Assembly: GCA_037308085.1 (NCBI GenBank)
Contig: CP147779.1
Span: 800,001 to 864,000, forward strand
Direction of reading: 5' to 3'
DNA length: 64,000 nucleotides
Source: Promethearchaeati archaeon SRVP18_Atabeyarchaeia-1
GTDB lineage: Archaea; Asgardarchaeota; Atabeyarchaeia; Atabeyarchaeales; Atabeyarchaeaceae
Part shown: positions 29,962 to 64,000 of the stretch, one piece after another
How the letters are laid out: every line of letters starts with the position of its first letter
How positions within the stretch are numbered: position 1 is the stretch's first letter
Position numbers and translations under genes: made by a program
Notes under the pieces: model-generated
Database searches by the model: none
Told to the model about the DNA's origin: nothing
Seen by the model: the letters and a program-made list of their open reading frames with translations, nothing else

Positions 29962-29975
29962 TTTTGCTAACCTCC

Positions 29976-47767: not shown

Positions 47768-49071
47768 CTATGTAGGCGTAGGTAGGTATGCGTCAGCGTA
47801 CCTATCGTATGCTACGTAGATCTGGGGCTTCACAGCATCATGTAGGAGCCTCACGAGTTCATCGGTTCCCCTCCGCTCCGCCCCCGTCAGGACGTACCCA
47901 CCCGCAAGGAGCGTAGGCAGGATGGTTTCATCCCACCGCTTCTTCTCATGGGGAACGCCCTCCATCCTCAGGTACAGGTTAATGGCGGCGTTGAGCTGCC
48001 TATCTATCCGCAGCCCACAGCTCCGGCACTCGAAGACTGCTGCTCCTCTTAGGTCTTTGTTTATCCACCCGCATCTGGAGCACCTCTTCGAGGTGAACTG
48101 GGGAGGCACCTCAACTCCTCCTGCAAGCCTCCTTATTTCGCGCCAGTCCGTGCGTGCTATCCGGCGATTCCACTTCCTGGAACGCGTATACAGCCTCTCC
48201 TTTCTTAGAGCTTCGAATCCGTTGGCGTCTGAGAGAGATCGCATCACCCTCGCCACTTCAACCTGGTGCTTCCTCGCACGGTTCCTCTCCCTTCCACGAT
48301 ACTTTGCGAGGACCCTCTTCGCCCTCTTGGACTTCGAGGTCTTCCTCTGCACGCTGCGCCTCTTCTCGAAGCTCGACACGTGGACCGAGGCTAGCCTCCT
48401 CGTGTCAATCTTCACCCACCCTGTCTCAGGGCTATAGCCGTCCATGGATAGCATATTCGAGTCCCACGCTACCACCTCAGCAGTTTTCTCCTTCTCCTCC
48501 TCTTCTGTCACATGGATGGGTAGGTGTATTTTGTCTGGCGTGATGACAGGTTCTCCTATGCCGTTGGAGGATACGTTGTCGGGCAGCTTGAAGTAGCGTC
48601 TTGACAAGTCGATGTAGGCGAAGAGGTGCGGCTTCAGGGTGATCCTGAGCGTGTCACCCTCAAGTTTGAGGAGGGTCTGCTTGATGCGCAGGAAAAGTCT
48701 CTTCGCTCGCGGGCACACCCGCCGCCTCTCACCCTTGTCGTAGTTCCTCTTCCATGAAGACATGATGCTGAAGGCCGTCTTCGTGGCGGAGTCAACCCAG
48801 TGCGCAGCGTAGACCCAGTTCTGCAGGTACCTGTCTCTCAACCCGCGCTTGAAGGCATTGTCCCTCCTGTACTTTGGAGAGTCTGTGCTACTTCTTGCCT
48901 TTCAGTTGGTGCTTTCTCCACTCTACTGTCCGCCAGATGTCTTGTAGCGAGGTGTTGAGAAGGTCATTGCAGGCAGCCATTAGGCCGCTGAGTGCTTCGC
49001 CCCGGTTATGACTGAGCGAATAGGTTCTTAGCGTCCCGGTCCACCTCACCGTATTCAATCCTGGCTTCACA
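47768..49071 (-). pseudogene. tnpB: IS200/IS605-family tnpB, split by TAG and frameshift near 48890
   Basis: RuvC-I WDSNMLSMDG; FEAL; TSKRCSRCG..CRSCG; DRQLNAAINL; N-terminus in ORF 48888-49112; GC-rich. Confidence 0.88.
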
Positions 49072-49272: not shown

Positions 49273-50604
49273 TTGGTTCAAACAAGGTTCAGATTTGTGG
49301 GGGCATGCGGTCTCCACCCTAGGACGCTGAGAGAAGGTTGTTCTAAGTTGGTCGGTGAGCTTAGGGTTCCATATGGAAACGGAATGCTGTTCTTTGGTCT
49401 GCCCGAAGAATGGAGCCTAATTTCAAATCTCTCTCCGCAAGATCCAGATCCACTACGTGATCTGAGTGCTACCCTAGCCGGCTCCCTTAGGAACCCCATC
49501 GGTTGCCCCGGAATAGCAGAGCTGGCATCAGGTCGGAAGAGAGTTGCAGTCATAATTGATGACAAGACCCGTCCGACCCCTGCAGATCGACTGATCCCCG
49601 TAGTTCTCAAGGAACTGGAAGCGGCCGGCGTAAAGGATAAGGATGTGACAGTCGTCGTGGGCAGAGGATTACACCCCAAGATGACTGAAAGCGAACTAGC
49701 AGCCAAAATCGGAAAAACTGTCTTGGAATCGGTGAACGTTGCGGATCACAATGCAGACTCCGGCTTCATTCCTCTGGGCAAGACATCGAACAACGTACCC
49801 ATATCTGTAAATAGCCTCGTTGCAGGGTCCGATCTGAAGATCGGCCTGGGTTCGATCTTCCCTCACGAGCTGCTTGGATTTACTGGCGGATCAAGTATTA
49901 TTGTACCAGGAGTGGCCTCTCGGGAAACTATAAACAAGAATCACATGCTCGTCGGCAAGTTCGACGCTGAGTTTGGCAGAATAGAAGGGAACCTGATCAG
50001 AAGCGATTCTGAGGAGGCAGCCAGAAAAACGGGACTCGACATCATCGTAAATGTTGTGCTGAACTCAAAGGATGAAGTGATTAACCTCAGCGTGGGGGAT
50101 GTTGTCAGGGCTCATCGAGAAGGAGTCGCCGTCTCACAGAAGGTTCACGGGGTTAAAATAGAGAAGCTTGCCGACGTTACGATCGTCTCCTCGAGTCCAA
50201 AGGGAACCACGTTTGGGAAGGGGCTCAAAGCCATCTTCGCGGCTGATCTTGCCACTAAGCCTAACGGAACAATAATCTTCGCGTCTCCGTGCAACGAGGG
50301 GATCTCATCAAGCGAAGTATTCCGTGAGATGTTGCTGACTAACCCTGGCCCAAAGTTCCTCTTCAAGCTTCTCAAGGGTGGAGAACTTCCTGGAGAAAGT
50401 TGTGTGCTATACTTGTTCTCACTCGTCAAGAAGAGAAAGAAGATAATTCTCGTCTCAGAAGGCGTGTCGTCTACCGAAGCAGAAAAGATTGGAATCAATA
50501 GTGCCAACAGCATTGAAGAAGCAATCGTGGCATCAGGGAAGAAGAAGGCTGATGTATACGTCATGCCAAGGGGATCCATAACACTGCCAATCTTGCGGCG
50601 ATAG
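49273..50604 (+). CDS. LarA-superfamily (NPN-dependent racemase/epimerase) protein
   Basis: DDKTRP, GLH, PHELLGFTGG, NH, GLK; true start probably ~49348. Confidence 0.88.
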   Translation: MVQTRFRFVGACGLHPRTLREGCSKLVGELRVPYGNGMLFFGLPEEWSLISNLSPQDPDPLRDLSATLAGSLRNPIGCPGIAELASGRKRVAVIIDDKTRPTPADRLIPVVLKELEAAGVKDKDVTVVVGRGLHPKMTESELAAKIGKTVLESVNVADHNADSGFIPLGKTSNNVPISVNSLVAGSDLKIGLGSIFPHELLGFTGGSSIIVPGVASRETINKNHMLVGKFDAEFGRIEGNLIRSDSEEAARKTGLDIIVNVVLNSKDEVINLSVGDVVRAHREGVAVSQKVHGVKIEKLADVTIVSSSPKGTTFGKGLKAIFAADLATKPNGTIIFASPCNEGISSSEVFREMLLTNPGPKFLFKLLKGGELPGESCVLYLFSLVKKRKKIILVSEGVSSTEAEKIGINSANSIEEAIVASGKKKADVYVMPRGSITLPILRR

Positions 50605-50630
50605 CGGGAAGCCGTTTAGGAGGCCCATCC

Positions 50631-51542
50631 TTGTCGAAATTTAGAGCTGAACAAACGATAATCGACATACACGGTCTCAAGATCGGAGGGCAACCTGGAC
50701 AACTACCCACACTTGTGATTCCTTGCCTATTCAATCCGCGCATGAAGGAGGTCTCCGACCACAAGGCAGGTGTCTTCGACAAGAATCGGGTTAGGGTCTA
50801 CCTCGAACGCGTTAGAAAGATGAGTGAGAGTACAGGCAGCCCCTATGCGATCGATGTCATGGCGACGACTCCAGAGGCGATGACCCGGTACATTGAGTTT
50901 ATTACTGGAGAACCAGATGAACTGCCATTTCTGTTCGATGCAATAGAGCCCAAGACCCGTATCGCAGCGGCACAACTTGCAAAGTCGATCGGCGTTGAAG
51001 ACAGAGCCATCTGGAATTCTCTTTCCACAACATCCACTGAAGAGGAATTCAGCGCGGTTATTCAGAACGGAATTGTGAACGTAATAGCGCAGGCTTTTGA
51101 TAGGAAGGATCCATCGCCGAAAGGCTCCCTTGCGTGCTTAACTAGCAAAGGCCTACTCAGCAGGGTCACGCGCTCTATGCCGAAGGGCATACTCATAGAC
51201 GTGCCCGTATTCGATGTTGCAAGCATGGGCGCCACCTCAGAAGCCCTCTCGCTTGTCAGGAGCGAGCTCGGTCTACCGGCAGGGTGCGCGCCAGCTAACG
51301 CCACATACCAGTGGAGGGAGAAAAGAACCGACCTCCTGAGAAAGAACTTTGGCTCAGTCCACGCAGCTGCTTGTGTCATAATGCAATTCAGCGGAGCAAA
51401 CTACCTGCTGATTGGGCCGATTGGAGGTGCAACGAGAATATTCAAGGCTTGCGCCATGACTGACGCAATGATTGCTTACGCGGCTATGACCAAAGGCGTG
51501 AGGCCTCTGGTCAAAACACATCCTATCTATAGCATCTTCTAG
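50631..51542 (+). CDS. mtrH: MtrH-like methyl-H4MPT:corrinoid methyltransferase
   Basis: KIGGQPGQLPT, PFLFD, IWNS, GLPAGCAPAN, HP at C-terminus. Confidence 0.85.
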   Translation: MSKFRAEQTIIDIHGLKIGGQPGQLPTLVIPCLFNPRMKEVSDHKAGVFDKNRVRVYLERVRKMSESTGSPYAIDVMATTPEAMTRYIEFITGEPDELPFLFDAIEPKTRIAAAQLAKSIGVEDRAIWNSLSTTSTEEEFSAVIQNGIVNVIAQAFDRKDPSPKGSLACLTSKGLLSRVTRSMPKGILIDVPVFDVASMGATSEALSLVRSELGLPAGCAPANATYQWREKRTDLLRKNFGSVHAAACVIMQFSGANYLLIGPIGGATRIFKACAMTDAMIAYAAMTKGVRPLVKTHPIYSIF

Positions 51543-51594
51543 GAGGAAAAAAGGGAGACCAAGTCAGATGCGAGTCAATCTCTTAGATCGAATT

Positions 51595-52563
51595 CTATTC
51601 AAATGACTTCTTCAGCAGTTCAACATCGACTCGGCCAGCATGGTACAGTTTGCCAGTCTTCAAGTCATTGATGGTTATCTCGGCGGGTGCAAAGAGTCCC
51701 GGGTCGATCTTGTAGAAATCATATCCCGCTGCTTTGAATGTCTGATGGAATGGCCTGCCGTAGTCTTTTGAAGACGATGATGGGACTTTGTTTATTATGT
51801 CTGAGAGATCTTCTTCCTCAGCTTCGACGGTCAGGTATACTCTTCCTGCTGCAAGTATCACGTCGTTTGTTCTGCCCATTGCCTTTGCGGAATTTGGATG
51901 GATCGGTGCTATCGGTGCTACTCCACACGCGTGCCTTATCTTCTTGGGATCAAAGCCGACCTCGGACAGCTTGTGTATCCCAGTTTCCACGACTCTGCCG
52001 GAAATCTGAACGGAACCAACAACAGAGCTGGTGGGCGCGACAATCACATAAAGATCCGAGTACGAAACAAGACACTTGCCTGCTATTGTTTCAACTATAT
52101 CGTTGTCGACGGTGTGGTCCGTCTCAATCACTATCACGGCCTGTTTTGCCTTATCTTCATAGGAGATTTTCTCGTAGATCTCCTTGGGTTCCAGAGATAG
52201 AGCTCTCGCAGGGCCCGAACCCATCCCGAAGATCTTCTTTTCCTTGTCCTTTATTCTCCACCCCGCAAACTGGGAACCCAGCGTGGCGATGGCTGGGTAG
52301 CCTGTCTCCACAAAGATTGAGGGCAGAATTAAGCCTCCGCCGTAGTCAATCATCGATAGACTTGCTGTTCCAAGTCCACCTAGACAAACCTCAGTCACAA
52401 ACCTCCCCGCATTGAAGCTTCCCTTCGCTTCTATACCGGCATCAAGCACGGTAGCTCCGTTTTCCGTTCTTGTTACCTTGATCCTTAACTCATCTGCATA
52501 CTCTATCATTTCCTGCACTATCGGTAGAGCGCTAGAGTTGACACTAACATCATTTTCCGCCAT
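51595..52563 (-). CDS. mch: methenyl-H4MPT cyclohydrolase
   Basis: GSQFAGW, GSGPARAL, GSVQISGRVVETG, GRTND, DFYKID..FAPA. Confidence 0.96.
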   Translation of the reverse strand: MAENDVSVNSSALPIVQEMIEYADELRIKVTRTENGATVLDAGIEAKGSFNAGRFVTEVCLGGLGTASLSMIDYGGGLILPSIFVETGYPAIATLGSQFAGWRIKDKEKKIFGMGSGPARALSLEPKEIYEKISYEDKAKQAVIVIETDHTVDNDIVETIAGKCLVSYSDLYVIVAPTSSVVGSVQISGRVVETGIHKLSEVGFDPKKIRHACGVAPIAPIHPNSAKAMGRTNDVILAAGRVYLTVEAEEEDLSDIINKVPSSSSKDYGRPFHQTFKAAGYDFYKIDPGLFAPAEITINDLKTGKLYHAGRVDVELLKKSFE

Positions 52564-52754
52564 AGAATGGTGGTCTCCTCAAGTTAAGCCAGTTCCTAGA
52601 TTCGCTTCAAACACAAGAAATACCTTTCCTTGGTACCATCCTATATGGCTTTGGTATCGCAGGGATGACACCAGAGCGGCGATGTAGCTTATAATCAGTG
52701 CGAGGCCGCGTCTGCCACAGACCAGAAAAAGTAGAGGCAAGCAAATACATGATC

Positions 52755-53555
52755 CTAGGCTTTCAGGTAGAGTTCCCCTTTTCCACCGTCTGCGAGGTCT
52801 CCGACGAACTTATTGAAGGGTCCACTTATCTCTTCGCCGTCTTCCTCGCTAGTCCTTGTGCTCGGGACTTTTCCTTCGCTCTTGAAAGATGGGAGTACTT
52901 CAGCGATTCTGCCTAGGATGATGATCTTTCCTTTGGTCATCTCTCCGCCGGCTCGAGGAGCAGCGTCTTTGTGTACTACTATGACTCCACCTTTCAGGTG
53001 TATGCCTGCCATGGCGCCGACGCTGCCTTTGACGACTATCGTGCCATTGGACATCCATGAACCGATCTCGTTTCCGGCGTTTCCCTCGACGAGTATGGTT
53101 CCTCCTGAGGTTCCTCTCCACTCTCCGCGGTACGAGGCGCCCAGGTAGCTTCCGGCGTTTCCTTTGATTGTAATCTCGCCGCCTTTCATCAACGCCCCAG
53201 CCCAGTCCCCCGCGTTTCCTTCGACGGTTATCTTGCCGCCTCTCATGTTGTTGCCTACGTGCATCCCAGCGCTTCCTTTAATTATGATTTCGCCGGCAGT
53301 CATGCCTTCGCCGACTCTCTTAACGGTAGGGATGTCTCCCTGTATGACTATGCGGATATCTTCTGGCTTGTCGACCTTTATTCCCTTAACGTCGAAAACA
53401 TCCTTGAGTTTGAGCTGCCTGTTTCCTCTGAATATAGTTAGACCTAGTATTTGTTCTACTGTTTTTCCAGCAACTTTGTCTGGGCTTATTACTTCAGCTT
53501 CGATAGGGACTTTGCTATTGATACTCTTGGGGACGAGAATGATTTCTTGGACCAC
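52755..53555 (-). CDS. fwdC: formylmethanofuran dehydrogenase subunit C
   Basis: GXGXG beta-helix repeats; YRGEWRG. Confidence 0.95.
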   Translation of the reverse strand: MVQEIILVPKSINSKVPIEAEVISPDKVAGKTVEQILGLTIFRGNRQLKLKDVFDVKGIKVDKPEDIRIVIQGDIPTVKRVGEGMTAGEIIIKGSAGMHVGNNMRGGKITVEGNAGDWAGALMKGGEITIKGNAGSYLGASYRGEWRGTSGGTILVEGNAGNEIGSWMSNGTIVVKGSVGAMAGIHLKGGVIVVHKDAAPRAGGEMTKGKIIILGRIAEVLPSFKSEGKVPSTRTSEEDGEEISGPFNKFVGDLADGGKGELYLKA

Positions 53556-53607
53556 GAGATTTCTTCCTCCATCGAGTAGAATTCGGCGCGATCTACTATA
53601 TTATCCC

Positions 53608-55335
53608 TTACTTCTTTAGTTCCATCTTCACAGGAGCTGGGTTGACTAGGTATTCATCCTGTACAGGGTAGTTCTGGAGGTTTACCGTGTAGTATTTCAT
53701 GAATTTGTCCTTAAGATCTTCGTATACTGCCTTTGTCCAGTCATCAGGAACCTCTATGTCGAGCCAGTGGGTTCTGCCAATTGGCGAAGCTACAACCTCA
53801 CCATCCTTGACTACGATCTGGCCACGAGCAATTGTGTATTTGGCGTTCTTGAAGGCTTTCTCGACGGCTTCAGGGTTCTGGGATGGATTAATCTTGACAG
53901 GATCTAGATCATAAATCGCTACATCAGCGTCGGCACCCACACCTAAGTGCCCCTTATTCTTCATTCCAACGGCCCTGGCGATCCCCGCTCTTGTGATTAT
54001 GGCGATTTCGGAGATGCTGTATTCTCGGTCATAGTTGGGTAGTGTTGTCTTCGATGTCGCCCGCTCGTGTACTTCCTTTAGCATGGCTTCCCTTTTTTTC
54101 TTGCTGACTAACCAAGATATAATGGTTGGATAACTCGTGAAAGGTCCACCATTGGGATGATCAGTCGTCAAGTACATCCTCCAAGGGTCTTTGACTCCTA
54201 GCGCGATTTCGAGTCCCACGGCCCACTGGATTGCGTTGACTCCGGTTCCTTTCTTAATATAGACATATGGGACTATTCCTGCACTTGTTTCGAGTTCAAC
54301 GTCTGCGTTAACCCATTTGAGCCCAGTCAGTTTGTGCAGGTTATACTCCATTGGTCCATCGGCTGTCATAGTTGTTGTGTCGCCGAAGACAACCTGCCCC
54401 ATATCGACTGTGACGTGCTTGTGAGCATTAACATAATTAACTAGTTCATCCGCTGCAGATGAGAAGGTTTTCCAGTCTTCCCCCGCGTAAGCGTGGAACT
54501 GGGCGTGAGTCAGGTGAATGACGGCATCTCTACCGTTCCCTGATGAGTGCGCTATACCCTCCACAGAATTGAGTGTGTCTAGGGTTACTTTGATGTTGCC
54601 AGGGTGACCCAGGTTATTGGGGTGGACATGGATGGTGTGAGGCAGACGTAGTCTCTCATTGACCTTTGCAAGATTTGTTATAACCTCTCTTGGGCTGATG
54701 TCGAAGTAGGGCACCCGATCATCTATTGTATCGCAGTTCTTTCCCCACTTCCAACTCTCAACTCCACCAGGGTTGACCATCTTAATGGCATATCCCTTGG
54801 TAGCTTTGAGCATCCAAGCCACGAAGGCAGTTAGTTTATCAAGATCCTTGTCTTTTATGTAGTCGATTACAAACCAGTTTCCTCCGAAAAGAGGATAGCA
54901 CGCCTTGTCGACAATAGGCATGTCATTAAACTCTTCGTGGACATGTCTTGCTTTTAGCGGTGGCACCGCGGGCTCGATGACAGTCGTCCAACCCATTCTG
55001 GCGTACCTGTAGCCTGTGGTGTAAGTGGAGGGAATTGAATAACCGACACCGGATCTCATGCCTTCTTTCTTGAACTCAAAATCCTTTCTGTGATCCTCAG
55101 GTCTCAGGAGTCTTCCAGCATCAACCTTTGGTCCCGCAATATGAGTGTGAACGTCTACTCCTCCAGGCATTACGATGCATCCACTCGCATCTATGACCTT
55201 AGAATCAGTCGCTTTGACATGAGTCTCATCGACGATCCTGCCATCCTTGATGCAAACAGTGATCTTCTCTCCGTCGGCATTGTTCGCTGGATCGTAAACA
55301 AGACCATTCTTGATTATTATGGCATTGTTCGGCAT
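53608..55335 (-). CDS. fwdA: formylmethanofuran dehydrogenase subunit A
   Basis: DVHTHIAG, KMVNPGG, TTMTADGP, TTDHPNGGPF. Confidence 0.97.
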   Translation of the reverse strand: MPNNAIIIKNGLVYDPANNADGEKITVCIKDGRIVDETHVKATDSKVIDASGCIVMPGGVDVHTHIAGPKVDAGRLLRPEDHRKDFEFKKEGMRSGVGYSIPSTYTTGYRYARMGWTTVIEPAVPPLKARHVHEEFNDMPIVDKACYPLFGGNWFVIDYIKDKDLDKLTAFVAWMLKATKGYAIKMVNPGGVESWKWGKNCDTIDDRVPYFDISPREVITNLAKVNERLRLPHTIHVHPNNLGHPGNIKVTLDTLNSVEGIAHSSGNGRDAVIHLTHAQFHAYAGEDWKTFSSAADELVNYVNAHKHVTVDMGQVVFGDTTTMTADGPMEYNLHKLTGLKWVNADVELETSAGIVPYVYIKKGTGVNAIQWAVGLEIALGVKDPWRMYLTTDHPNGGPFTSYPTIISWLVSKKKREAMLKEVHERATSKTTLPNYDREYSISEIAIITRAGIARAVGMKNKGHLGVGADADVAIYDLDPVKINPSQNPEAVEKAFKNAKYTIARGQIVVKDGEVVASPIGRTHWLDIEVPDDWTKAVYEDLKDKFMKYYTVNLQNYPVQDEYLVNPAPVKMELKK

Positions 55336-55490
55336 GTGTCCAAGACCACCCTATGTACGGTCAGCTTTTCTAGAAGGAATCTTTTCTTAATTGATAAGGG
55401 TTATGCTGCACGCCATAATCATTGTGCGCATTCATCATGACGACTCAGGCGATAATCTGAATTATCAAAGTGATAAACTTTTGTCAACTC

Positions 55491-56699
55491 TTATGTTTTG
55501 CCTAGGATGACCTGACCTGACCTTTGTGAAGGCTGGTGTAGGGCAAGTCCTGGCTTGTACCCCGTGAGCTTGCCGAGTTCAGATGCAAATCCATAAAATA
55601 TCCTCGATAGCTGGATGCCCTTTGGGCAGTTTTCGTCGCACTTTCCACAGTTGACGCACGTATCTCCCATGTGTACTAGTCTTGTTGCATGCAAGAGTAG
55701 TGGGTCAATGGTTTTTATCTTCTTAAGAAGAATACAGTCCTTGCACCAGCAAACTGGGCAGGCACGTACACAGAGTCCGCATTTGGTACAGGGGTCGAGC
55801 ATTGCTTTCAATTGAGCGAACCGCTTGTTTCCTTCAAGTCTGGCAAGTTCCTCATTCTGTTCTTCAAGTCTTTTGTCGGCGCCCTTCTCCATGTCCCTAA
55901 TGACTGAGTCTTTCTGCTCCTTTTCTGAGACATCCGAACTGCTTAGAGAGATTAGCATTCCTTGGCTTTTTGCCAGCTTGATACTCGTAGCCCCCCTCTC
56001 TGTGACGGGTCTAATCAAGATGTTTGGGTTTGCCGAGGGGCTCCTGCGCCAAGCTGAGATGCTGATGTCGCACGTAGGTGGCTCACGATTGCCACATCTT
56101 GTGCAGCATTCCCGCAGTCTCACGTCCTTGCCAAGCTTCAGTGGTGCAATAGTCCCCGAAGTTGCTTTGACCGCTATTTCACTGGGTGTTATCTCACAAG
56201 ACTCGATTTTCGATTGATCTATTCCTTGTTTCTTTATAGCGTTGGCTAAGTCTAGGAAAGACACGCTTCCTGGACATTCCAGGCCGATAATGAATAGGTT
56301 CCCAAACGATACCTGATTTCTCTTCGACAGTTCGACAAGCGCCTCAATCTCGCAAGGACGCGCTACTAAGGCGACCTTTTTGTCGAAGCATCCACCAAGT
56401 TGAGAGTGAATAATCTTGGGAACGCTAAGTAGTCTTGGTAGCCCGACCACCAGATATTGTGAGAGGAGACGGTAGTCGAGGCTCGAGACATCAGAAGAGG
56501 CTTCAACTGAGACAGCCTGCATTCCGCCGCCTGGCTTCTTCTCGGTGAAGGTCAGAAATGCATCCACGATCCCACCATCCAGCAATGCTTTGTAGAGCGA
56601 CTTGATCGTGGTTTCCACTGGACGACCGCGGTTTTCGTCACTGATTCGGCATGTGATGTACGATCTGTCCTCACTCACCTTCACCAACTCCATATTCAA
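55491..56699 (-). CDS. FdhB/FrhB-family (F420-interacting-type) subunit with C-terminal 2x[4Fe-4S]
   Basis: ARPCEIEALVELSKRNQ, IIGLECPG, LRECCTRC, CTKCGLCVRACPVCWC, CVNCGKCDENCP. Confidence 0.85.
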   Translation of the reverse strand: MNMELVKVSEDRSYITCRISDENRGRPVETTIKSLYKALLDGGIVDAFLTFTEKKPGGGMQAVSVEASSDVSSLDYRLLSQYLVVGLPRLLSVPKIIHSQLGGCFDKKVALVARPCEIEALVELSKRNQVSFGNLFIIGLECPGSVSFLDLANAIKKQGIDQSKIESCEITPSEIAVKATSGTIAPLKLGKDVRLRECCTRCGNREPPTCDISISAWRRSPSANPNILIRPVTERGATSIKLAKSQGMLISLSSSDVSEKEQKDSVIRDMEKGADKRLEEQNEELARLEGNKRFAQLKAMLDPCTKCGLCVRACPVCWCKDCILLKKIKTIDPLLLHATRLVHMGDTCVNCGKCDENCPKGIQLSRIFYGFASELGKLTGYKPGLALHQPSQRSGQVILGKT

Positions 56700-56704
56700 A
56701 GTTC

Positions 56705-56785
56705 GTAATCATAATCATCGTAAGGTGTATTTGTCCCCGCCATACCCTGGCAAACAGGGTAAGTCCCATTCATGACACATCTCTG
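56705..56785 (-). promoter_or_regulatory. candidate SECIS element in the mvhD 3' UTR
   Basis: GUC-AUGAA...CGAU-GAU tandem G.A-core-like pairing enclosing a perfect UACCCUG/CAGGGUA hairpin, immediately after two UGA-containing genes. Confidence 0.45.
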
Positions 56786-56786
56786 T

Positions 56787-57224
56787 TTACTCATGATGGT
56801 CATCCAGCTTGGCGGGTTCTGCCTTGAAGGGGTTCTGGCCCAAAGACCGGATTATCTCGACGGCTGTCTTGACCACTTCAGCGAATTTCTCTCCTTCTGC
56901 TGATGAGCAATTGTAGAACTGAGCTCTGTCTGCGCCGATTCCCATGAACCCGAGGATCTGCTGTACATGCTTGACTTGGTTCTTCGCGATAATGTTTCCC
57001 TTTTCGTATTCGCAGGTTCCTTCGTATCAGCCTACCACTAGAACGCCATCAGCGCCTTTCCTCAGTGCCCTGATAATCAGATCTCCGTCGACACGCCCGG
57101 CGCAGGGCACACGGATAGTTCTCACGTTCGATGGGTACTGTATTCTTCCGATCCCTGCTGTGTCAGCCGCGCCATACCCTCATTTCCAACAGAGGAACAT
57201 TGCTATCTTTGGTTCGAAAGCCAT
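56787..57224 (-). CDS. mvhD: MvhD/VhuD [2Fe-2S] protein, probable selenoprotein with 2 in-frame UGA (57180-82, 57027-29); absent from the ORF track
   Basis: MAFEPKIAMFLCWK-U-GYGAADTAGIGRIQYPSNVRTIRVPCAGRVD..GADGVLVVG-U-YEGTCEY..SSAEGEKFA; 145 aa ending in TAA. Confidence 0.93.
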
Positions 57225-57250
57225 TTTCACGCGACACCTCTTTCAGTCGA

Positions 57251-59215
57251 CTACTGATCTGCGAATAATGTGTCTATGTATGCTTCGTATTGCTCGTCCT
57301 TGTAGTGTCTAAGAGTAATTGCTGATGAGGGGCATACCGCTGCGCAGGCGCCGCATCCTCTGCAGTCCATTTCATTGACGACGGCAATCCTGTCTTTCAT
57401 GGTTATGGCTCCGTACGAGCATATCTCTGCGCATAGGCCGCATCCAGAGCATCTCTTGTCATCAGCGATCGCGCGTACCAGGGTGATTTCGACTTGCTTG
57501 TTGATCATGGGTGTTCCAGCAGATGAAGCGGCTCCTTTCGCTGTCCCAACCGCTTCGGGGATTGACTTGGGACCTTGGGCAACGCCTGCGATGTACACGC
57601 CAAGCTTCTTTGTATCGACTGGTGCGAGGCACAAGTGGAACTCCTTGACAAAGCCGTCTTTGGCTCGCTCGATCTTCAAAAGTCCTCTTAGGTCATCCTG
57701 CCTTGCAGGGGGAATCATTGCAGTCGAGAGAACCACCATGTCGGCCTCCGTTTCAGAGACTTCGCTAGTGAGAGTGTCTTCAACGGAGAGCAGAAGATTC
57801 TTCGTCAAGGGATCTTCAACAACTTCAGCTACCTTCCCTCGCACGAACCTCACGCCCGCGTTTCTGGTCTCTCTGTTATACTCCTCGTGGTCTCTGCAGG
57901 GGGTTCTGATGTCGATGTAGTAGATCGTGGGCTCAGTATCTGGGTAGTAGTGTTTGACGTATTTGGCGTTCTTGATGGCAGTCATGCAGCAGACTCCGGC
58001 AGAGCAGTACTGATTAGCATCCATGCTTCGTGATCCTACGCACTGTATCATGGCTATTCTTTTGGGGGTCATCAAATCTGAAGGGCGAACTAGCTTGCCG
58101 CCAGTTGGACCATTTGGCGCGGTTATCCGCTCAAGTTCGAGTTGTGTTATGACGTTCTCGTATTTTCCATAGCCGTACTCGCCAATTGGCTTGTACTCCC
58201 TGAACCCTGTGGCAAGCAGGATAACTCCAACGTCTATCTCAACGGTCTTTGGCGCCTGGTCCAGGTTGATGGCATTAGGCTCGCACTTCTTCATGCAAAG
58301 CCTGCACTTTATGCATCTATCCATGTCGATCGTGTAAGTACTCGGCACTGCTTGCGGGAATGGTAGGTAGATAGCCTTTCTTGTTCCAAGTCCTTCGTCG
58401 AACTCGTTCGGCGCGAAGATTGGGCAGACATCGACGCAAGCCCCGCACCCATTGCATTTCTCCCGTTCTACGTATCTCGGTTTTTGTCTGACTGTGACTT
58501 TGAAATCGCCGACATACCCCTCTACTTTCTCAACTTCGCTGTAACTGAGTAGCTCAATGTTATGGTGATGTGCCAGTTCCACCATCTTTGGACCTAAGAT
58601 TCAGATTGAGCAATCATCCGTCGGGTAAGTCTTATTCAGTTTTGCCATATGCCCACCGATGGAAGGTTCACGCTCAACCAGGCACACTTTCATTCCCTTG
58701 TCAGCCAAGTCTAGTGCGGCTTGAAGCCCAGCGACTCCGCCACCAACAACAAGTGCCTTCTGAAGCACTGGTACAATCTTTGTCGGGATGCTCTCAAGCA
58801 ATTTTGCTCGTTCGACTGCCGCCCTGATTAGCGCCTTGGCTTTGATCATTGCTTCTATGGGCTTGTCAGTGTGAACAAAGGTGCATTGCTCCCTGATGTT
58901 TACGAACTCCAAGTAGCTTGGATCTACGCCAGCTTCCTTGAGAATAGTGCGGAACAGTGGTTCGTGAGTCTTAGGGGTACATGCCGCGACTATAACCCTA
59001 TCCAGCTCGTACTCCTTGATCTTGGCCTTGATTAGGGAGGCGCCAGACTCGGTGCAGAGAGAGATATTCTGTGCCGCGATTTTCACTCCTTCCAGTTCAC
59101 CAGCATACTCAACGAGAGCAGAAGTATCAATGACGCCACCGATATTTACTCCTCAACGGCAGATGAAAACACCAATGCTAAAAGATGATTTAGGCTCTCC
59201 CGTTTGTTGACTCAC
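57251..59215 (-). CDS. hdrA: heterodisulfide reductase subunit A, probable selenoprotein with 2 in-frame UGA (59153-55, 58601-03)
   Basis: One 654-aa frame: IGVFICR-U-GVNIGG, GGGVAG, TYPTDDCSI-U-ILGPKM, CVGSR, ferredoxin motifs. Confidence 0.94.
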
Positions 59216-59277
59216 CCCCTAGGCTCCATTGACGTGCTTCGCAGGTAGGTTCCCGCGGAGCTACTTCCAGATTCCTA

Positions 59278-59952
59278 CTATGAGGTCAATTTCGTCGTAA
59301 GCTTCTTGACGGTCTCATCCCAGAAATCAGTGTGTTCTCCAGACCAGGTGACTTCATCGCGTGTGAGCTCCAGTGCGCCCTCCCCTGGGCAGGCATTAAT
59401 GCATGCGCCGCAGAAAAGGCATTTCTTATCGTCGATTGACACTTTCTCTGTCTTCTCCCATGGCTTTGATGACTTCGGAATAGTGATTGCCTTGGTTGGG
59501 CAAATATCCGCGCAAGTTGAGCATCCGCCAGGGCACTTGTCGACGTGTATAGCGATTCTGCCCTTGAAGAACTTGCGTGCCTTATTCCCTGTTCTTTCAC
59601 AGGTAACCTCTTCGTACTTCAACTCAGGAACTGCCTTGCCGTCAACGATCTGAAGCTTCCTTTCGCCGTTTATCTTAAACTCGATTGCCTGAAATGGGCA
59701 GATATAATCACAGACACCGCAGAAAGAGCACTTCCTCTCGTCAACCAGAACTGGAGGTGACTGAACATCCTTTTTCATTGATGCTCCCACAGGACCTCTA
59801 GCAATGGCTTCCTTTGGGCAGGCGGTGACACAGACGCCACACCCGGTGCACTTCTCTCGATTAACGTTAAGCGAAAGCGTAATGTTTAGCATTCTAAGTG
59901 ATGCAGTAACTTTCGACGGATCAACGGTCCTTGTGTATTGGGGTAATGCCAT
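59278..59952 (-). CDS. fwdF: FwdF-like polyferredoxin (4 clusters)
   Basis: Four ferredoxin-type Cys motifs; fwd operon context. Confidence 0.75.
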   Translation of the reverse strand: MALPQYTRTVDPSKVTASLRMLNITLSLNVNREKCTGCGVCVTACPKEAIARGPVGASMKKDVQSPPVLVDERKCSFCGVCDYICPFQAIEFKINGERKLQIVDGKAVPELKYEEVTCERTGNKARKFFKGRIAIHVDKCPGGCSTCADICPTKAITIPKSSKPWEKTEKVSIDDKKCLFCGACINACPGEGALELTRDEVTWSGEHTDFWDETVKKLTTKLTS

Positions 59953-59971
59953 TACTTCACATCCTCCCTAC

Positions 59972-60229
59972 TCACTCTTTGGGCTTTTCGGGTTGTTGAG
60001 AGGGAAACCTGATCTCTAGTGCGTGGCGCGGGCATGCCTCGATGCACATTCCGCAGCCGTCACATAAATCTTGGTTTGTTACTCCGAGTTTGCCGTTCTT
60101 TACTCTCAACACCGCGTTTGATTCCTGTTCTGTAACTATCTTTCCAGTCTTGTTGACTGGGCATGCGATCGTGCAATCGCCGCAGCCGTTGCACTTTCTC
60201 TCAGAGATGGCTATTTGATAGGATGTCAA
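59972..60229 (-). CDS. fwdG: FwdG-like ferredoxin
   Basis: CNGCGDCTIACPVN..V.NG...N.DLCDGCGMCIEACP. Confidence 0.75.
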   Translation of the reverse strand: MTSYQIAISERKCNGCGDCTIACPVNKTGKIVTEQESNAVLRVKNGKLGVTNQDLCDGCGMCIEACPRHALEIRFPSQQPEKPKE

Positions 60230-60715
60230 TCAGGGGCGCCTCCGAGTTGACGCGATAATTCGCACTATCAATAGTGATTTGCGATTCCATTCATATGACG
60301 CTTCCAATAGGTAAGAAACCCTTCGATTGTTCTGCAAGTCTTGTCAGCGCAAGGTAAGCTATCTTTGTGACTTGATTTGGTTTTCGTCATTTTAAGGTTA
60401 ACTAAGAACTTTTCCATCACTCAATTCGGTTCAAGGGAAGCCATTATTCTTCAGATGTTGGAGGTATCGCATCGGCTTTTATACCTTTTTCAGGGGAATG
60501 AGTGTCATTCGTGCCGAGGTGAGAAGTGCGTCTTCTACTCTTGTCGTTCGCAAGTGGCAAGCTCTCGGGACCCGCCTACAAGCGCGTGATAGGAGACCGT
60601 CCAAGTCCTGCGGTGGCAACTGATGTAACAATCCTATGATACACTTTATTAAATCAATCAGTGGGCGAAAGTCATTTATAACAAGACTTCATCTTTTCGA
60701 TGCTGGTTTTATATT

Positions 60716-60991
60716 ATGTGTGGGGTTCTTGATATGGCTAATGATTCAGGTCCCGCTGTAAATACACAGCGATGTCAGGGATGCTCGAATTGCGTTATGG
60801 CTTGCCCAATCAATCAGAAGCTTGACAAGCGCATAATCGAGGGTGAATCACCCAGGTCTGATGACGTTGTGTTAAGGATCAAGAATGGCTCATGCACAGT
60901 CCTCAACAAGAAGCTCTGCCTTCAGAAGAGCTTTGAATGTAAGAGGTGCGAGCAAATCTGTCCGAGGGGCGCCATTCGGGTAATCGAGTGA
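60716..60991 (+). CDS. fwdG: second FwdG-like ferredoxin
   Basis: CQGCSNCVMACPIN..I.NG; second cluster motif with an insertion. Confidence 0.7.
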   Translation: MCGVLDMANDSGPAVNTQRCQGCSNCVMACPINQKLDKRIIEGESPRSDDVVLRIKNGSCTVLNKKLCLQKSFECKRCEQICPRGAIRVIE

Positions 60992-61055
60992 GTTTCTTAA
61001 TATACTAGTATAAGACGCTATAGATGCGAAGAGACGGAAAAGAGGGTTAGTCGGA

Positions 61056-61460
61056 TTGCCTGAGAAGTCGGTTGAGGTTGTCATAATAACTGGCAGAACG
61101 GTGGATCAAGGGGTTGCGATAGAGGGCGGTAAACTCTCGCAGTCCTATGTGAAGGCCGCTGCCATATGCTACATGGATCCAAACGACATGAAGAAGATAG
61201 GGGTCATAACTGGAGACATCATTACAGTCAAGACGAACGCCGGGCAGGTAATACTACGGGCTGTCAAGTCTGAAGATACGCCGCATGTCGGCCTTGTATT
61301 TATTCCCATGGGTCCGTGGGCTAACCAACTTACTAATCCGGAGACCGATAGTATAGGCATGCCATCATTCAAAGGTATGAAAGGCATAATAGAGGCAACC
61401 CAAGGTGGAAAGATACTGGACGCCGCCACACTAGTCAAGACCGCTTTCCACAAGGCGTGA
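61056..61460 (+). CDS. fwdD: formylmethanofuran dehydrogenase subunit D
   Basis: TGRTVDQG, FIPMGPWAN, GMPSFKG. Confidence 0.95.
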   Translation: MPEKSVEVVIITGRTVDQGVAIEGGKLSQSYVKAAAICYMDPNDMKKIGVITGDIITVKTNAGQVILRAVKSEDTPHVGLVFIPMGPWANQLTNPETDSIGMPSFKGMKGIIEATQGGKILDAATLVKTAFHKA

Positions 61461-61489
61461 GTGGCATTAACACGAGGTGTAAGTGAGAT

Positions 61490-62806
61490 TTGTCACAAAA
61501 GGTAATCGACTCAGTCGTATGCCCGTTCTGCGGCTCTCTTTGCGACGATACGGAAGTTGTAGTCAAGGACGGCAGAATAATCGAAACCCGGAACATGTGC
61601 ATCATGGGAACTCAAAAGCTCTTCGCAAGTCAAGCACCCGAAAGAATCAGAAAACCGATGATACGGGAGAACGGTAGCTTCAAGGAGGTCACACTTGACC
61701 AAGCGATCCAGAGGGCTGCGGAGATACTGGTGAAGTCGGAGAGACCACTTCTTTATGGCTGGAGTTCAAGTGAATGTGATACCAGCAGGGTAGGTTTTGA
61801 GCTTGCTGAAGAGGTTGGCGCTATTATTGATTCGACTGCTTCGGTCTGCCATGGACCTTCCGTTCTCGCCATCCAAGATGTTGGTCTGAGCAGTTGTACT
61901 CTGGGCGAGGTGAAGAACCGAGCTGACCTTATAATATACTGGGGTTGCAATCCTCAACATGCTCACCCAAGACACATGAGCAGATACACTTCATTCGTGA
62001 GAGGTTTCTTCAGAGACAAGGGAGTAAAGGAACGGAGCATAGTTGTGGTAGACGTTCGCAGAACTGATACGGCGAAGCTAGCAACCCACTTTATCCAAAC
62101 CGAATATGACAAGGATTATGAATTACTGGGTGCCCTGAGAGCTGTAGTCAACGGCTATGACATTCTCACCGACAAAGTTGCGGGTGTTCCAAAAGAAAAG
62201 ATAATAGAGCTTGCTAGCATGATGAAGAACTGCGGGTTCGGCATAATCTTCTTTGGCATGGGGTTGACTCAGAGCACTGGGAAGCATAGGAACATAGATA
62301 ACGCGATACAGCTTACCACAGACCTCAACAAATACACAAAGTTCCTGATTATGCCGATGCGTGGTCACTACAACGTGACTGGCTTCGGCGTTGTCGCATC
62401 TTGGATCAGCGGGTACCCGTACGCTGTTGACTTCAGCAGGGGGTATCCGCGGTATAATCCAGGAGAGACAACGGCTAACGATGTCCTGCAGAAAGAGGAG
62501 ATTGATGCGGCGCTTGTCGTGGCATCGGACCCAGTTTCTCATTTTCCGAAGAAGTCGATCGAGTTCTTGGCAAAGATACCTTTGATAGTAATCGAACCAC
62601 ACCCGACTCCAACTACTGAACTTGCTGATGTCGTTATCCCTCCGGCGGTATCGGGAGTGGAAGTTGAGGGGACCGCGTACCGGATGGATAATGTTCCAAT
62701 TCGGCTGAGAAAAGTCGTCGACGCGCCAGACGGCCTCCTTCCAGACAGAGAACTAGTTCACAGAATACTCGAGAAGGTTCGGGAACTGAAGAAGAAGAGA
62801 ACCTAG
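61490..62806 (+). CDS. fwdB: formylmethanofuran dehydrogenase subunit B (Cys form)
   Basis: CPFCGSLCDD, ASVCHGP, KNRAD, HPRH, MRGHYNV. Confidence 0.97.
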   Translation: MSQKVIDSVVCPFCGSLCDDTEVVVKDGRIIETRNMCIMGTQKLFASQAPERIRKPMIRENGSFKEVTLDQAIQRAAEILVKSERPLLYGWSSSECDTSRVGFELAEEVGAIIDSTASVCHGPSVLAIQDVGLSSCTLGEVKNRADLIIYWGCNPQHAHPRHMSRYTSFVRGFFRDKGVKERSIVVVDVRRTDTAKLATHFIQTEYDKDYELLGALRAVVNGYDILTDKVAGVPKEKIIELASMMKNCGFGIIFFGMGLTQSTGKHRNIDNAIQLTTDLNKYTKFLIMPMRGHYNVTGFGVVASWISGYPYAVDFSRGYPRYNPGETTANDVLQKEEIDAALVVASDPVSHFPKKSIEFLAKIPLIVIEPHPTPTTELADVVIPPAVSGVEVEGTAYRMDNVPIRLRKVVDAPDGLLPDRELVHRILEKVRELKKKRT

Positions 62807-63016
62807 TCGGGAAAGAACTAAACTAAACGAAAGCGTCTGGTTCTATCCAGTTCCACACACGAGTTTTTCTTCTTTTTCTTAGCTTAAGGAGACTCCATAT
62901 GACTTTCTCTTTGTGCTCCTCGACTATTCGCGCATTGCGATCAAAATGGTTAATTAGAGGCATGGATAGATTGTAGGGAAGACCTTTAGAACGCTTGGAG
63001 GAGGTTCTAGGGTATT

Positions 63017-63868
63017 ATGACAACGCTTGGCACAGAAAATATCGTGAAAATTGGTGTTTTGAAACTTGGGAACATTGGGATATCACCTCTGCTAGATCTA
63101 ATCTTGGATGAACGAGCAGACAGGGGGGACATTGATATCCGCGTTGTTGGGAGCGGGCCGAAGCTCACTCCAGAGCAAACTCAGGAAGCTGCACAGAAGC
63201 TAATTGAACTCCGCCCTAAGCTTGTCATCGTGTCGAGCCCAAATGCCAGTCTGCCTGGGCCAAGCAGGGCTAGAGAATTGCTGAACGAAGCCAAGATACC
63301 GACAATTTCGCTGAGTGATGCACCCGGGAAAAAGGCCACTAAAGATATCGAAGAGAAGGGTCAAGGCTACATAATACTGTTAGGCGACCCCCTGATTGGC
63401 GCGCGGAGAGAATTCCTGGACTCTACTGAGATGGCCCTATTCAACTCCGATGCCATCAGAGTACTTTCCATAACTGGCGCCATGCGACTAATAATGAGAG
63501 AAGTCGATAGCGTTGTTGAGCAGATCAAGCAGGGCAAGTCGATCCAGCTTCCAAAGGTAGTTGTGGACGGCAAAACAGTCGTCAATTCCGCTGAGTTCAA
63601 GAACCCCTATGCTCGCGCTAGGGCCATAGCGGCCTACGAGATGACTGGCAAAGTTGCGGAGCTGAATACCCAAGCATGCTTCATTCTCAAGGAACCTCAG
63701 GAATATATTCAGATGGCCACCGCGGCTCACGAGATGATGCGACAGGCAGCGATGCTAGCCGAGTCTGCGAGGGAGATGGAGAAATGTGGAGACTCAGTCT
63801 ACAGACAGCCACACAAACGTGACGGAACGCTCGTAAACAAGAAATCATTGATGGAGAAGCCCCAATAG
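63017..63868 (+). CDS. mtd: F420-dependent methylene-H4MPT dehydrogenase
   Basis: KLGNIG..LDERADR, SPN..PGP, IGARREFLD..EMALFN, AAHE. Confidence 0.95.
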   Translation: MTTLGTENIVKIGVLKLGNIGISPLLDLILDERADRGDIDIRVVGSGPKLTPEQTQEAAQKLIELRPKLVIVSSPNASLPGPSRARELLNEAKIPTISLSDAPGKKATKDIEEKGQGYIILLGDPLIGARREFLDSTEMALFNSDAIRVLSITGAMRLIMREVDSVVEQIKQGKSIQLPKVVVDGKTVVNSAEFKNPYARARAIAAYEMTGKVAELNTQACFILKEPQEYIQMATAAHEMMRQAAMLAESAREMEKCGDSVYRQPHKRDGTLVNKKSLMEKPQ

Positions 63869-64000
63869 AATAGTGTTATATTCTCCGGATTAGTACAACG
63901 ATGTCCCATAGTTTTTTATGACGATGCACGTCTATACCGATGAACGAAATGGTCTGGAACCGGTACTATCGAATCGAAGTTAGAGAATGCGAAAAGGAGG

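Follow-up and report, generated by a model that had tools for sequence, protein, structure and literature searches.

The stretch of DNA analyzed here (64,000 nucleotides; the window) comes from the closed chromosome of Atabeyarchaeia-1, a non-methanogenic Asgard archaeon, and contains the sole fwd cluster of the genome. The formylmethanofuran dehydrogenase (Fwd) catalytic set is complete. FwdA (53608-55335, minus strand; TIGR03121, 840 bits, cut-off 392.75; single copy in the genome), FwdC (52755-53555, minus strand; TIGR03122, 283.8 bits, cut-off 130.65) and the 438-aa catalytic W/Mo-pterin subunit FwdB (61490-62806, plus strand; TIGR03129, 635 bits, cut-off 327.8) all scored above the equivalog cut-offs, and FwdD (61056-61460, plus strand; PF01568) reached 130.9 bits with NF042908, below the cut-off of 175 of that exception model. 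The fwdB ORF has zero in-frame TGA codons. At the two ends of the cluster lie the single-copy mch gene for methenyl-H4MPT cyclohydrolase (51595-52563, minus strand; TIGR03120, 428.5 bits, cut-off 228.8; PF02289), adjoined by a gene for an mtrH-like methyltransferase, and the mtd gene for F420-dependent methylene-H4MPT dehydrogenase (63017-63868, plus strand; NF002162, 392.2 bits, cut-off 297; PF01993). Embedded among these genes on the minus strand is a triad of hdrA (57251-59215), mvhD (56787-57230) and a gene for an FdhB/ElpB-like Fe-S subunit (55491-56699). Intergenic gaps within the cluster are short (19-155 nt). An earlier note on this DNA had described HdrA-MvhD and an FdhB-like protein within the fwd cluster of a probable non-methanogen; our analyses confirmed this arrangement and found no mcrA in the closed genome. 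All of the genes that it named were found where it had placed them, except that its minus-strand “fwdG-fwdF” pair proved to be a split FwdF, with the true fwdG on the plus strand.

The two ORFs of this pair encode a 224-aa protein with four [4Fe-4S] motifs (59278-59952, minus strand) and an 85-aa protein with two (59972-60229, minus strand). The larger protein is a homologue of the C-terminal half of FwdF, and its closest match is FmdF of the solved Fdh-Hdr-Fmd complex of Methanospirillum hungatei (7bkb_K), to which it aligns over residues 162-368 (E 1.7e-59). The smaller one was rejected as FwdG because it matched residues 70-146 of the same FmdF (E 8.9e-20) better than FwdG (5t5i_G, 1.5e-10). 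Only the 91-aa, 2-cluster ferredoxin encoded on the plus strand (60716-60991) has FwdG chains as its best PDB matches (9sfi_U, 1.5e-11; 5t5i_G, 1.3e-9; 7bkb_L, 7e-8). Judged from their sequences, the 85-aa and 224-aa ORFs together are a split, shortened FwdF with 2 + 4 predicted Fe-S clusters, whereas canonical FwdF/FmdF is one chain with four ferredoxin domains and eight [4Fe-4S] clusters. The N-terminal module is also a separate ORF in Atabeyarchaeia G002 and in Borrarchaeum.

The 654-aa HdrA (NF040770, 799.6 bits, profile positions 2-641) is complete in its domains, from the N-terminal domain through the FAD domain and the inserted ferredoxin to the C-terminal ferredoxin, and carries the motifs of a bifurcating type I HdrA (GGGVAG, DDC-S-I-Sec205 and 2 + 2 CxxCxxCxxxC). 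With MvhD on a gene of its own, HdrA does not reach the HdrA2 exception cut-off. The 147-aa, VhuD-like MvhD (NF045873, 148.6 bits) carries the FlpD domain expected of MvhD/VhuD (PF02662, 143 bits over positions 1-123). Each of the two genes contains two in-frame TGA codons, all four of which are, on the pattern of codon conservation, selenocysteine (Sec) codons (HdrA 21 and 205; MvhD 17 and 68). Among about 55-61 Asgard orthologues, 45-53 have TGA at the four positions and the remainder have Cys, as do Atabeyarchaeia-1's own HdrA/MvhD paralogues. HdrA Cys202/Sec205 and MvhD Sec17 correspond to the Cys202/Cys205/Cys16 relay of Methanothermobacter marburgensis (PMC13580544). Sec-containing HdrA/MvhD tandems and hdrA-mvhD-frhB triads have already been reported in non-methanogens (PMC11227280, PMC10667645).

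The third member of the triad, a 402-aa protein of an Asgard type (PF04432, 55.9 bits), has its best PDB matches in M. hungatei FdhB (7bkb_E, 7e-36) and M. marburgensis ElpB (8rvu_E, 9e-32). Its AlphaFold2 model (pLDDT 85) has the predicted FdhB/ElpB fold, with a TM score of 0.79 to FdhB and of 0.75-0.79 to ElpB, its second-best structural match. The subunit keeps 15/15 of the canonical-invariant Fe-S cysteines, in patterns that agree with the 7bkb_E, 9t1s_M and 8rvu_E alignments, and thus the ligands for four predicted [4Fe-4S] sites, the FrhB-type one and the three extra C-terminal ones of FdhB/ElpB. The flavin site reads differently. The protein lacks the GG, AGSLH, NCGG and GNWG invariants of canonical FdhB; its loops read RPVETTI, LLSQYLVV... 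and GLECPGS in place of GGAVT, AGSLHC and GLNCGG, so that G37, G38, A83, G84, H87 and N141 are all replaced. ElpB, by contrast, keeps CGGAVT, CGSLHC and GLNCGG. None of 16 Asgard-type FdhB-like proteins retains A83, G84, H87 or N141, the profile search found no PF04422 N-domain in the window protein, and its alignment to canonical FdhB (hhalign, E 1e-76) begins C-terminal of the GG motif. In FrhB, the FAD-contacting loops are residues 23-30 (QDGG), 71-77 and 131-138 (PMC3930138). Elsewhere the genome has a gene (G000:170443-172029) for a canonical, QDGG-containing F420 reductase of the FpoF/FwdI kind, and this FrhB-family protein is nearer FwdI/FpoF than is the window subunit. The F420 coupling claimed for the module had rested on the FdhB annotation; with the Fe-S wire kept, the flavin-loop residues lost and a separate canonical F420 reductase in the genome, that link is doubtful. 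F420H2 is a possible electron donor, with about one chance in three, and should not be the default.

Docking of the polyferredoxin on HdrA, which the earlier note had taken from methanogens, was also predicted here. Co-folding of HdrA residues 211-654 with the 224-aa FwdF-like protein scored 0.80 in 3/3 runs (best of three controls, 0.00), with at least 97% of contacts in agreement between runs and a partner pLDDT of at least 85; the mark applied is attained by 58/80 solved complexes and 2/110 mismatched pairs. The predicted interface sets the inserted ferredoxin domain of HdrA against the FwdF cluster motifs. Because MvhB docks at the same HdrA site in the solved Elp-Hdr complex (PMC12350162), the pass may partly mirror likeness to solved complexes; the input was a small custom alignment, and the predictor may be reproducing solved homologues that it already knows. 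Since the co-fold puts the FwdF-like protein on HdrA, the module is best read as an Asgard version of the Fdh-, Elp- and Mvh-Hdr-Fmd supercomplexes. We put at a little better than even (about 0.55) the probability that the sole Fwd of this organism is hard-wired to a dedicated Sec-containing HdrA-MvhD via the split FwdF, a reading in which we infer that the complex forms, which way electrons flow, which HdrBC takes part and what the donor is. The FdhB/ElpB-like subunit, with its four Fe-S clusters, would be the point of entry or exit for mid-potential electrons, which would reach the HdrA FAD by way of the N-terminal cluster of HdrA and the [2Fe-2S] cluster of MvhD. From the inserted ferredoxin domain, the low-potential branch would lead to FwdF, FwdG and FwdB, powering CO2 reduction to formyl-MFR or taking electrons in reverse. 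The high-potential branch would most likely use true HdrBC supplied in trans from an orphan hdrCB operon and acting on a disulfide. Counting against this reading, FmdFs outside groups 1 and 2 are predicted not to build the known supercomplex architectures (Sci Adv 2026, PMC13580544).

Among the closest parallels is the Elp-Hdr(-Fmd) complex of M. marburgensis (PDB 8RVU; Nomura et al., 2025, PMC12350162), likewise hydrogenase-free, in which ElpB (FdhB homologue) and ElpC (MvhD homologue) feed HdrA and a polyferredoxin attaches Fmd, the same plan as is proposed here. Its host, in contrast to Atabeyarchaeia-1, is a methanogen with CoM-S-S-CoB, and it contains ElpA, a truncated FdhA scaffold. In methanogen loci an FdhA-like or ElpA-like gene lies directly upstream, but neither the window nor the Asgard loci have one beside the triad; the genome has just one further molybdopterin protein, encoded by an isolated gene (651 aa) near 2.404 Mb. 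[quoted passage not shown] In the fwdDBAC-fdhAB loci of Methanomicrobiales (L143, L147 and L160), fwd genes adjoin those of the donor module, as here. The mvhD-hdrABC-fwdABCDFG cluster of Methanocella conradii, compared by its description in PMC12054007, similarly places Hdr/MvhD genes inside a fwd cluster, and was interpreted as an Hdr-Fwd supercomplex before structures were available (cited in PMC12054007); by the same description, it differs in having hdrBC, no FdhB-like gene and a methanogen host.

In most Asgard loci examined, the hdrA-mvhD-fdhB-like triad occurs without FdhA or ElpA, often followed by a polyferredoxin; only Atabeyarchaeia and Sifarchaeia/Borrarchaeum have it inside fwd, with the same gene order in Atabeyarchaeia G002/G003 and Sifarchaeia/Borrarchaeum (HdrA 56% identical). 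None of the loci has hdrBC within 10 kb of the triad, so an HdrBC-free mode may operate, against our preferred reading. Similar three-gene modules (hdrA-mvhD-frhB) are known from WLP-bearing non-methanogens of the Korarchaeia and Bathyarchaeia and from ANME, with F420 assumed from KO annotation and none described within a fwd operon, as the window triad is (PMC10667645, PMC7886697, PMC12054007). Of these, one locus from Bathyarchaeota (L102) has an FdhB-like protein of the Asgard type, and the ANME/Methanosarcinales versions also contain hdrBC and a molybdopterin protein that is non-catalytic.

Outside the locus, hdrCBA-mvhDGA occurs twice in the genome as a complete cluster and hdrCB once more as an unlinked orphan pair, giving three true HdrBC pairs at 137.4-138.8 kb (the orphan; 423.5 and 196.8 bits, both above equivalog cut-offs), 925.8-927.3 kb and 1817.3-1818.7 kb. 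The absence of true hdrBC from the window was correctly noted. An HdrD-like CCG protein and a GlcD-like partner are encoded at 28681-31469. In methanogens too, hdrA and hdrBC are often unlinked. Given the complete Hdr clusters and the orphan hdrCB, a high-potential partner replacing HdrBC is not required; genes of this kind elsewhere in the genome are what the earlier note had itself named as evidence against its proposal. The model of which it was part, an Elp-like, F420H2-oxidising, selenium-containing bifurcating complex that feeds Fwd, now appears unlikely. It draws on the close relationship of the third subunit to FdhB and ElpB, which oxidise F420H2 (PMC12350162), on the F420-dependent Mtd and Mer and the CofD and CofE encoded in the genome, on the lack of a group 3a Frh among its NiFe hits, and on the triads without nearby hdrBC. 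The HdrBC pairs, the separate F420 reductase, the replaced flavin-loop invariants and undetected PF04422, and the failure to find the FO synthase (CofG/CofH) in the closed genome argue against it.

A non-bifurcating conduit, in which HdrA-MvhD and the FdhB-like protein link Fwd or ferredoxin to a mid-potential carrier without HdrBC, is similarly improbable. Functionally it would resemble FwdI of Ca. Ethanoperedens thermophilum, where a hydrogenase-free Fwd is directly coupled to an FrhB-family module (FwdABCDG-FwdI, PDB 8RJA; PMC11493965) whose chain 8rja_E is among the fold matches of the window subunit, or the Fd:F420 oxidoreductase that the triad of Korarchaeia has been suggested to form (PMC10667645). 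The unlinked hdrBC of the Asgard loci fits this scheme, and the methyltransferase beside mch hints at oxidative C1 flow. However, FwdI has a canonical FAD site, replaces FwdF and needs no HdrA, whereas the window keeps FwdF, interposes an HdrA-MvhD with the complete bifurcating domain set and Cys/Sec relay pair, and lacks the flavin signature, a doubt that holds for a conduit as well. Slightly less probable still is a triad independent of Fwd, reducing for example soluble ferredoxin as it would in most Asgard lineages, with its fwd placement due to co-regulation or chance insertion: the link is not obligatory, which also counts against our preferred reading, since most Asgard loci examined lack fwd catalytic genes within 10 kb of the triad and the FdhB-like and FwdA distributions differ (12/14 versus 3/14 in family f19; 0 versus 30/31 in f11/f12), yet the embedded order is kept across two distant Asgard classes, a polyferredoxin often trails the triad elsewhere, the gaps inside the cluster are short and the HdrA-FwdF co-fold far exceeded its controls. 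In sum, this non-methanogen, like methanogens, has genes for a selenium-containing electron-splitting core alongside those for its sole CO2-fixing Fwd, yet with a presumed F420-linking subunit that is without the usual flavin signature.

ORF listing and Pfam/NCBIfam scans confirmed the cluster of fwd, hdrA, mvhD and fdhB-like genes described in the earlier note. The minus strand carries, in order, mch, fwdC, fwdA, a 402-aa protein with FrhB_FdhB_C and ferredoxin domains (the FdhB-like protein, 55491-56699), mvhD, hdrA, a 224-aa polyferredoxin and an 85-aa ferredoxin, and the plus strand a 91-aa ferredoxin, fwdD, fwdB and mtd. The 85-aa protein, first taken for a FwdG, is closer to FmdF residues 70-146 of the M. 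hungatei supercomplex (8.9e-20) than to FwdG, and the 224-aa protein aligned with FmdF residues 162-368 (E 1.7e-59). The two make up a FwdF split into parts with 2 + 4 cluster motifs, and the split is also kept in Atabeyarchaeia-2 and Borrarchaeum; the true FwdG is the plus-strand 91-aa protein. The Fwd subunits, Mch and Mtd are each encoded once in the genome. A gene of the mtrH family (MtrH/MtgA; 50631-51542, plus strand) flanks mch and is directly preceded by a LarA-like gene (Lar_N/LarA_C, 443 aa; the pair spans 49273-51542, plus strand), a possible route of methyl-group entry into the H4MPT pathway. A TnpB/Cas12f-like ORF (OrfB_IS605 and a Cas12f1-like TNB domain; 47768-48841, minus strand) lies 3 kb from the cluster.

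The best-supported reading of the cluster is an Asgard donor-Hdr-Fwd assembly. Mid-potential electrons would pass from the clusters of the FdhB-like protein to the N-terminal cluster of HdrA, the [2Fe-2S] center of MvhD and the HdrA FAD. The low-potential branch would then run through the inserted ferredoxin domain of HdrA to the split FwdF, FwdG and FwdB, and the high-potential branch would lead to an HdrBC supplied in trans, with a flow that could serve either CO2 fixation or C1 oxidation.

One rival is the model of the earlier note, an F420-linked bifurcating complex with a different high-potential partner in place of HdrBC. The lack of mcr on which that model drew holds genome-wide, as mcrA is absent from the closed 2.81-Mb genome (G000), of which the window covers C1:800001-864000. 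However, the genome encodes canonical Mvh and HdrBC in two complete hdrC-hdrB-hdrA-mvhD-mvhG-mvhA clusters (920.8-927.3 kb and 1815.7-1825.4 kb) and a third true HdrBC pair as an orphan hdrCB (137374-138829) that passes the TIGR03288 and TIGR03290 cut-offs, which argues against the model. The orphan hdrCB adjoins purQS, distant from any hdrA, and is available as a pair that could complete the fwd-linked HdrA. A fused HdrA-MvhD is encoded at 1214.8-1217.2 kb. We found neither FdhA nor ElpA (the truncated FdhA scaffold of the F420H2-oxidising Elp module) in the genome; the sole other molybdopterin protein, at ~2.404 Mb, was rejected as a lone weak match (265 bits, with the cut-off at 666) with no FdhB neighbor. 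Also rejected, as a missing HdrB, was a CCG protein encoded 22 kb away in the window (28681-29979). This HdrD-like protein (432 aa; a ferredoxin domain and two CCG domains) is paired with a GlcD-like flavoprotein (FAD_binding_4, 497 aa) whose gene overlaps its own by 4 nt (pair at 28681-31469, minus strand). The pair is unrelated to the fwd-hdr cluster; HdrD/GlcD pairs have been noted in Bathy- and Korarchaeia, and here a serpin gene (27149-28405) adjoins it.

The F420 link of the rival model depends on the FdhB-like subunit. [quoted passage not shown] The protein retains all 15 cysteines that never vary in canonical FdhB/ElpB, in line with four [4Fe-4S] clusters, but not the canonical flavin-site residues. 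Three loops surround the FAD of FrhB: 23-30, whose QDGG lies at the pyrophosphate, 71-77 and 131-138 (PMC3930138). Where canonical FdhB/ElpB carry the flavin loops GE(C)GGAVT, AGSLHC and GLNCGG, then GNWG, the window protein has RPVETTI, LLSQYLVVGLPRLLSVPK, GLECPGS and SAWRR; the canonical invariants G37, G38, A83, G84, H87, N141, A218, G220 and G223 are all altered, and A83, G84, H87 and N141 are kept in none of 16 Asgard-type sequences. Profile-profile alignment joins the Asgard-type and canonical families (E 1e-76), starting only past the GG motif, with a five-residue insert needed in the second loop. PF04422 (N-domain) was not detected in the window protein and is present in 11 of 24 family members. 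Further, a maximum-likelihood tree separated canonical FdhB/ElpB, as a 100/100 clade, from the Asgard-type proteins, with those of Atabeyarchaeia on a long stem. From these comparisons we conclude that the Fe-S wire is conserved and the canonical FAD/F420 site remodelled or lost; the subunit may nonetheless bind flavin.

Mtd and Mer (G000:905347-906315 in the closed genome) score above their equivalog cut-offs, and CofD (G000:968975-969886) and three CofE-like genes are present, yet neither CofG nor CofH, the FO synthase, was found in the closed genome. F420 biosynthesis thus looks incomplete, which suggests salvage of FO or F420, or an unknown FO synthase. A second FrhB-family protein (G000:170443-172029, plus strand) has an N-terminal 2x[4Fe-4S] domain, QDGG and GSVYS motifs and the canonical QDGG FAD loops. 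It is a stand-alone protein resembling FpoF/FqoF/FwdI, with a ~130-aa C-terminal extension and a TrmB regulator beside it, and this candidate soluble ferredoxin:F420 oxidoreductase could alone link ferredoxin and F420. In the Lokiarchaeum ossiferum family, 12 of 14 genomes encode the FdhB-like protein and 2 of 14 CofD; CofE-like genes occur in all five genomes examined, with scores near the cut-off. The paper describing Atabeyarchaeia-1 annotates gene 55491-56699 simply as fdhB (K00125), and its main text neither mentions F420 nor discusses this module (PMC11291895). It is conceivable, if rather unlikely, that the Asgard-type FdhB-like protein is no F420 enzyme at all and acts as a flavin-free or re-tooled Fe-S input arm connecting HdrA-MvhD to an unrecognised donor. 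This tentative proposal would cover the fwd-embedded copy and the triad (hdrA-mvhD-fdhB-like) copies of Loki-, Hel-, Hermod-, Jord-, Sif- and Bathyarchaeia; in Atabeyarchaeia and Sifarchaeia the arm would feed a methanogen-like, CO2-fixing Hdr-Fwd machine working on an unknown disulfide.

A second rival treats the module as a non-bifurcating conduit, like FwdI (PMC11493965) or the proposal for Korarchaeia (PMC10667645). Two in-frame TGA codons occur in hdrA and two in mvhD. Of about 55-61 Asgard orthologues, 45-53 likewise have TGA there, and the others, like this genome's own paralogues, have Cys; the codons therefore encode selenocysteine. Such Sec hdrA-mvhD(frhD) tandems have been described for Asgard archaea in a paper that also deals with SECIS (PMC11227280). 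An Rfam scan of window positions 51000-64000 returned nothing relevant and no SECIS family. A Cys202/Cys205/Cys16 relay has been proposed to connect MvhD with the flavin (PMC13580544). Its positions correspond to HdrA Cys202/Sec205 and MvhD Sec17, and we infer that selenium sits at the gate of bifurcation.

For the docking of the shortened FwdF in the donor-Hdr-Fwd assembly, we co-folded the 224-aa protein with HdrA 211-654 (the table-11 ORF after Sec205). The pair scored 0.80 in three runs and the best of three controls 0.00; in calibration, 58 of 80 solved complexes attained the 0.80 mark, as did 2 of 110 mismatched pairs, counts that hold only roughly because the co-fold alignments were self-supplied. 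The runs shared at least 97% of contacts, with a partner pLDDT of at least 85, and in the predicted interface FwdF residues 46-47 and 76-80, at the cluster motifs, face the inserted ferredoxin domain of HdrA (fragment residues 53-99). The solved Elp-Hdr complex of a methanogen has MvhB bound to this same domain (PMC12350162); the co-fold pass therefore shows likeness and may in part reproduce solved homologues.

A word-based homologue search with the FdhB-like protein retrieved only the Atabeyarchaeia clade and one distant match, and genome searches, used instead, found it in 181 of 400 Asgard genomes. The Asgard loci examined have the order hdrA-mvhD-fdhB-like, often followed by a polyferredoxin, with no FdhA/ElpA-like gene beside the triad and no hdrBC within 10 kb; in methanogen loci, by contrast, fdhA/elpA lies directly upstream of fdhB, and Methanomicrobiales have the order fwdDBAC-fdhAB. 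Named records with these loci belong to Loki/Promethearchaeia, Hel-, Hermod-, Jord- and Freyarchaeota and one Bathyarchaeota MAG. In the Lokiarchaeum ossiferum family, where most genomes lack FwdA and CofD, three loci (L096, Ca. Lokiarchaeum ossiferum CP104013.1; L063; L064) carry the FdhB-like gene alone, with no adjacent hdrA or mvhD. The last rival is a triad working independently of Fwd. By family, the FdhB-like and FwdA distributions overlap and are not identical, which favors this rival, whereas the embedding of the triad among fwd genes in Atabeyarchaeia (G000, G002 and G003/LC30) and Sifarchaeia/Borrarchaeum speaks against it. The node of the FdhB tree that bears on a single origin of this embedding is unsupported and its branches are long. 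Sifarchaeia/Borrarchaeum also carry, between the fdhB-like gene and fwdA, an extra HdrA-like gene without the N-terminal domain that aligns from residue 155 (L059 12147-13463 and L069 4584-5888, in Ca. Borrarchaeum and a relative). Beside their fwdB lies one more HdrA-MvhD pair.

Precedents exist in Hdr-Fmd supercomplexes, Elp, the Methanocella fwd-hdr cluster, hdrA-mvhD-frhB triads and Sec-HdrA/MvhD. In the literature searched we found neither their combination in a non-methanogen, nor an Asgard-type FdhB subfamily that goes without ElpA and has lost the flavin signature, nor a split FwdF. The residue result agrees with a published proposal that class II methanogens obtained their FmdF from Asgard archaea or Bathyarchaeia. 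Hydrogenotrophic methanogenesis is seen as having Hdr-Fwd supercomplexes at its core, and the probable presence of such wiring, with a dedicated Sec-type HdrA-MvhD, in Mcr-less Asgard archaea bears on the role of Hdr in non-methanogens and on the low-potential electron supply of the archaeal Wood-Ljungdahl pathway. A kept Fe-S wire with a lost flavin signature provides testable ground to doubt the F420 assignment in Asgard, Bathy- and Korarchaeia reconstructions. Were the FdhB-like protein indeed no F420 enzyme, published Wood-Ljungdahl models of the non-methanogens concerned, which presume an F420H2:Hdr link on the strength of K00125, would need revising.
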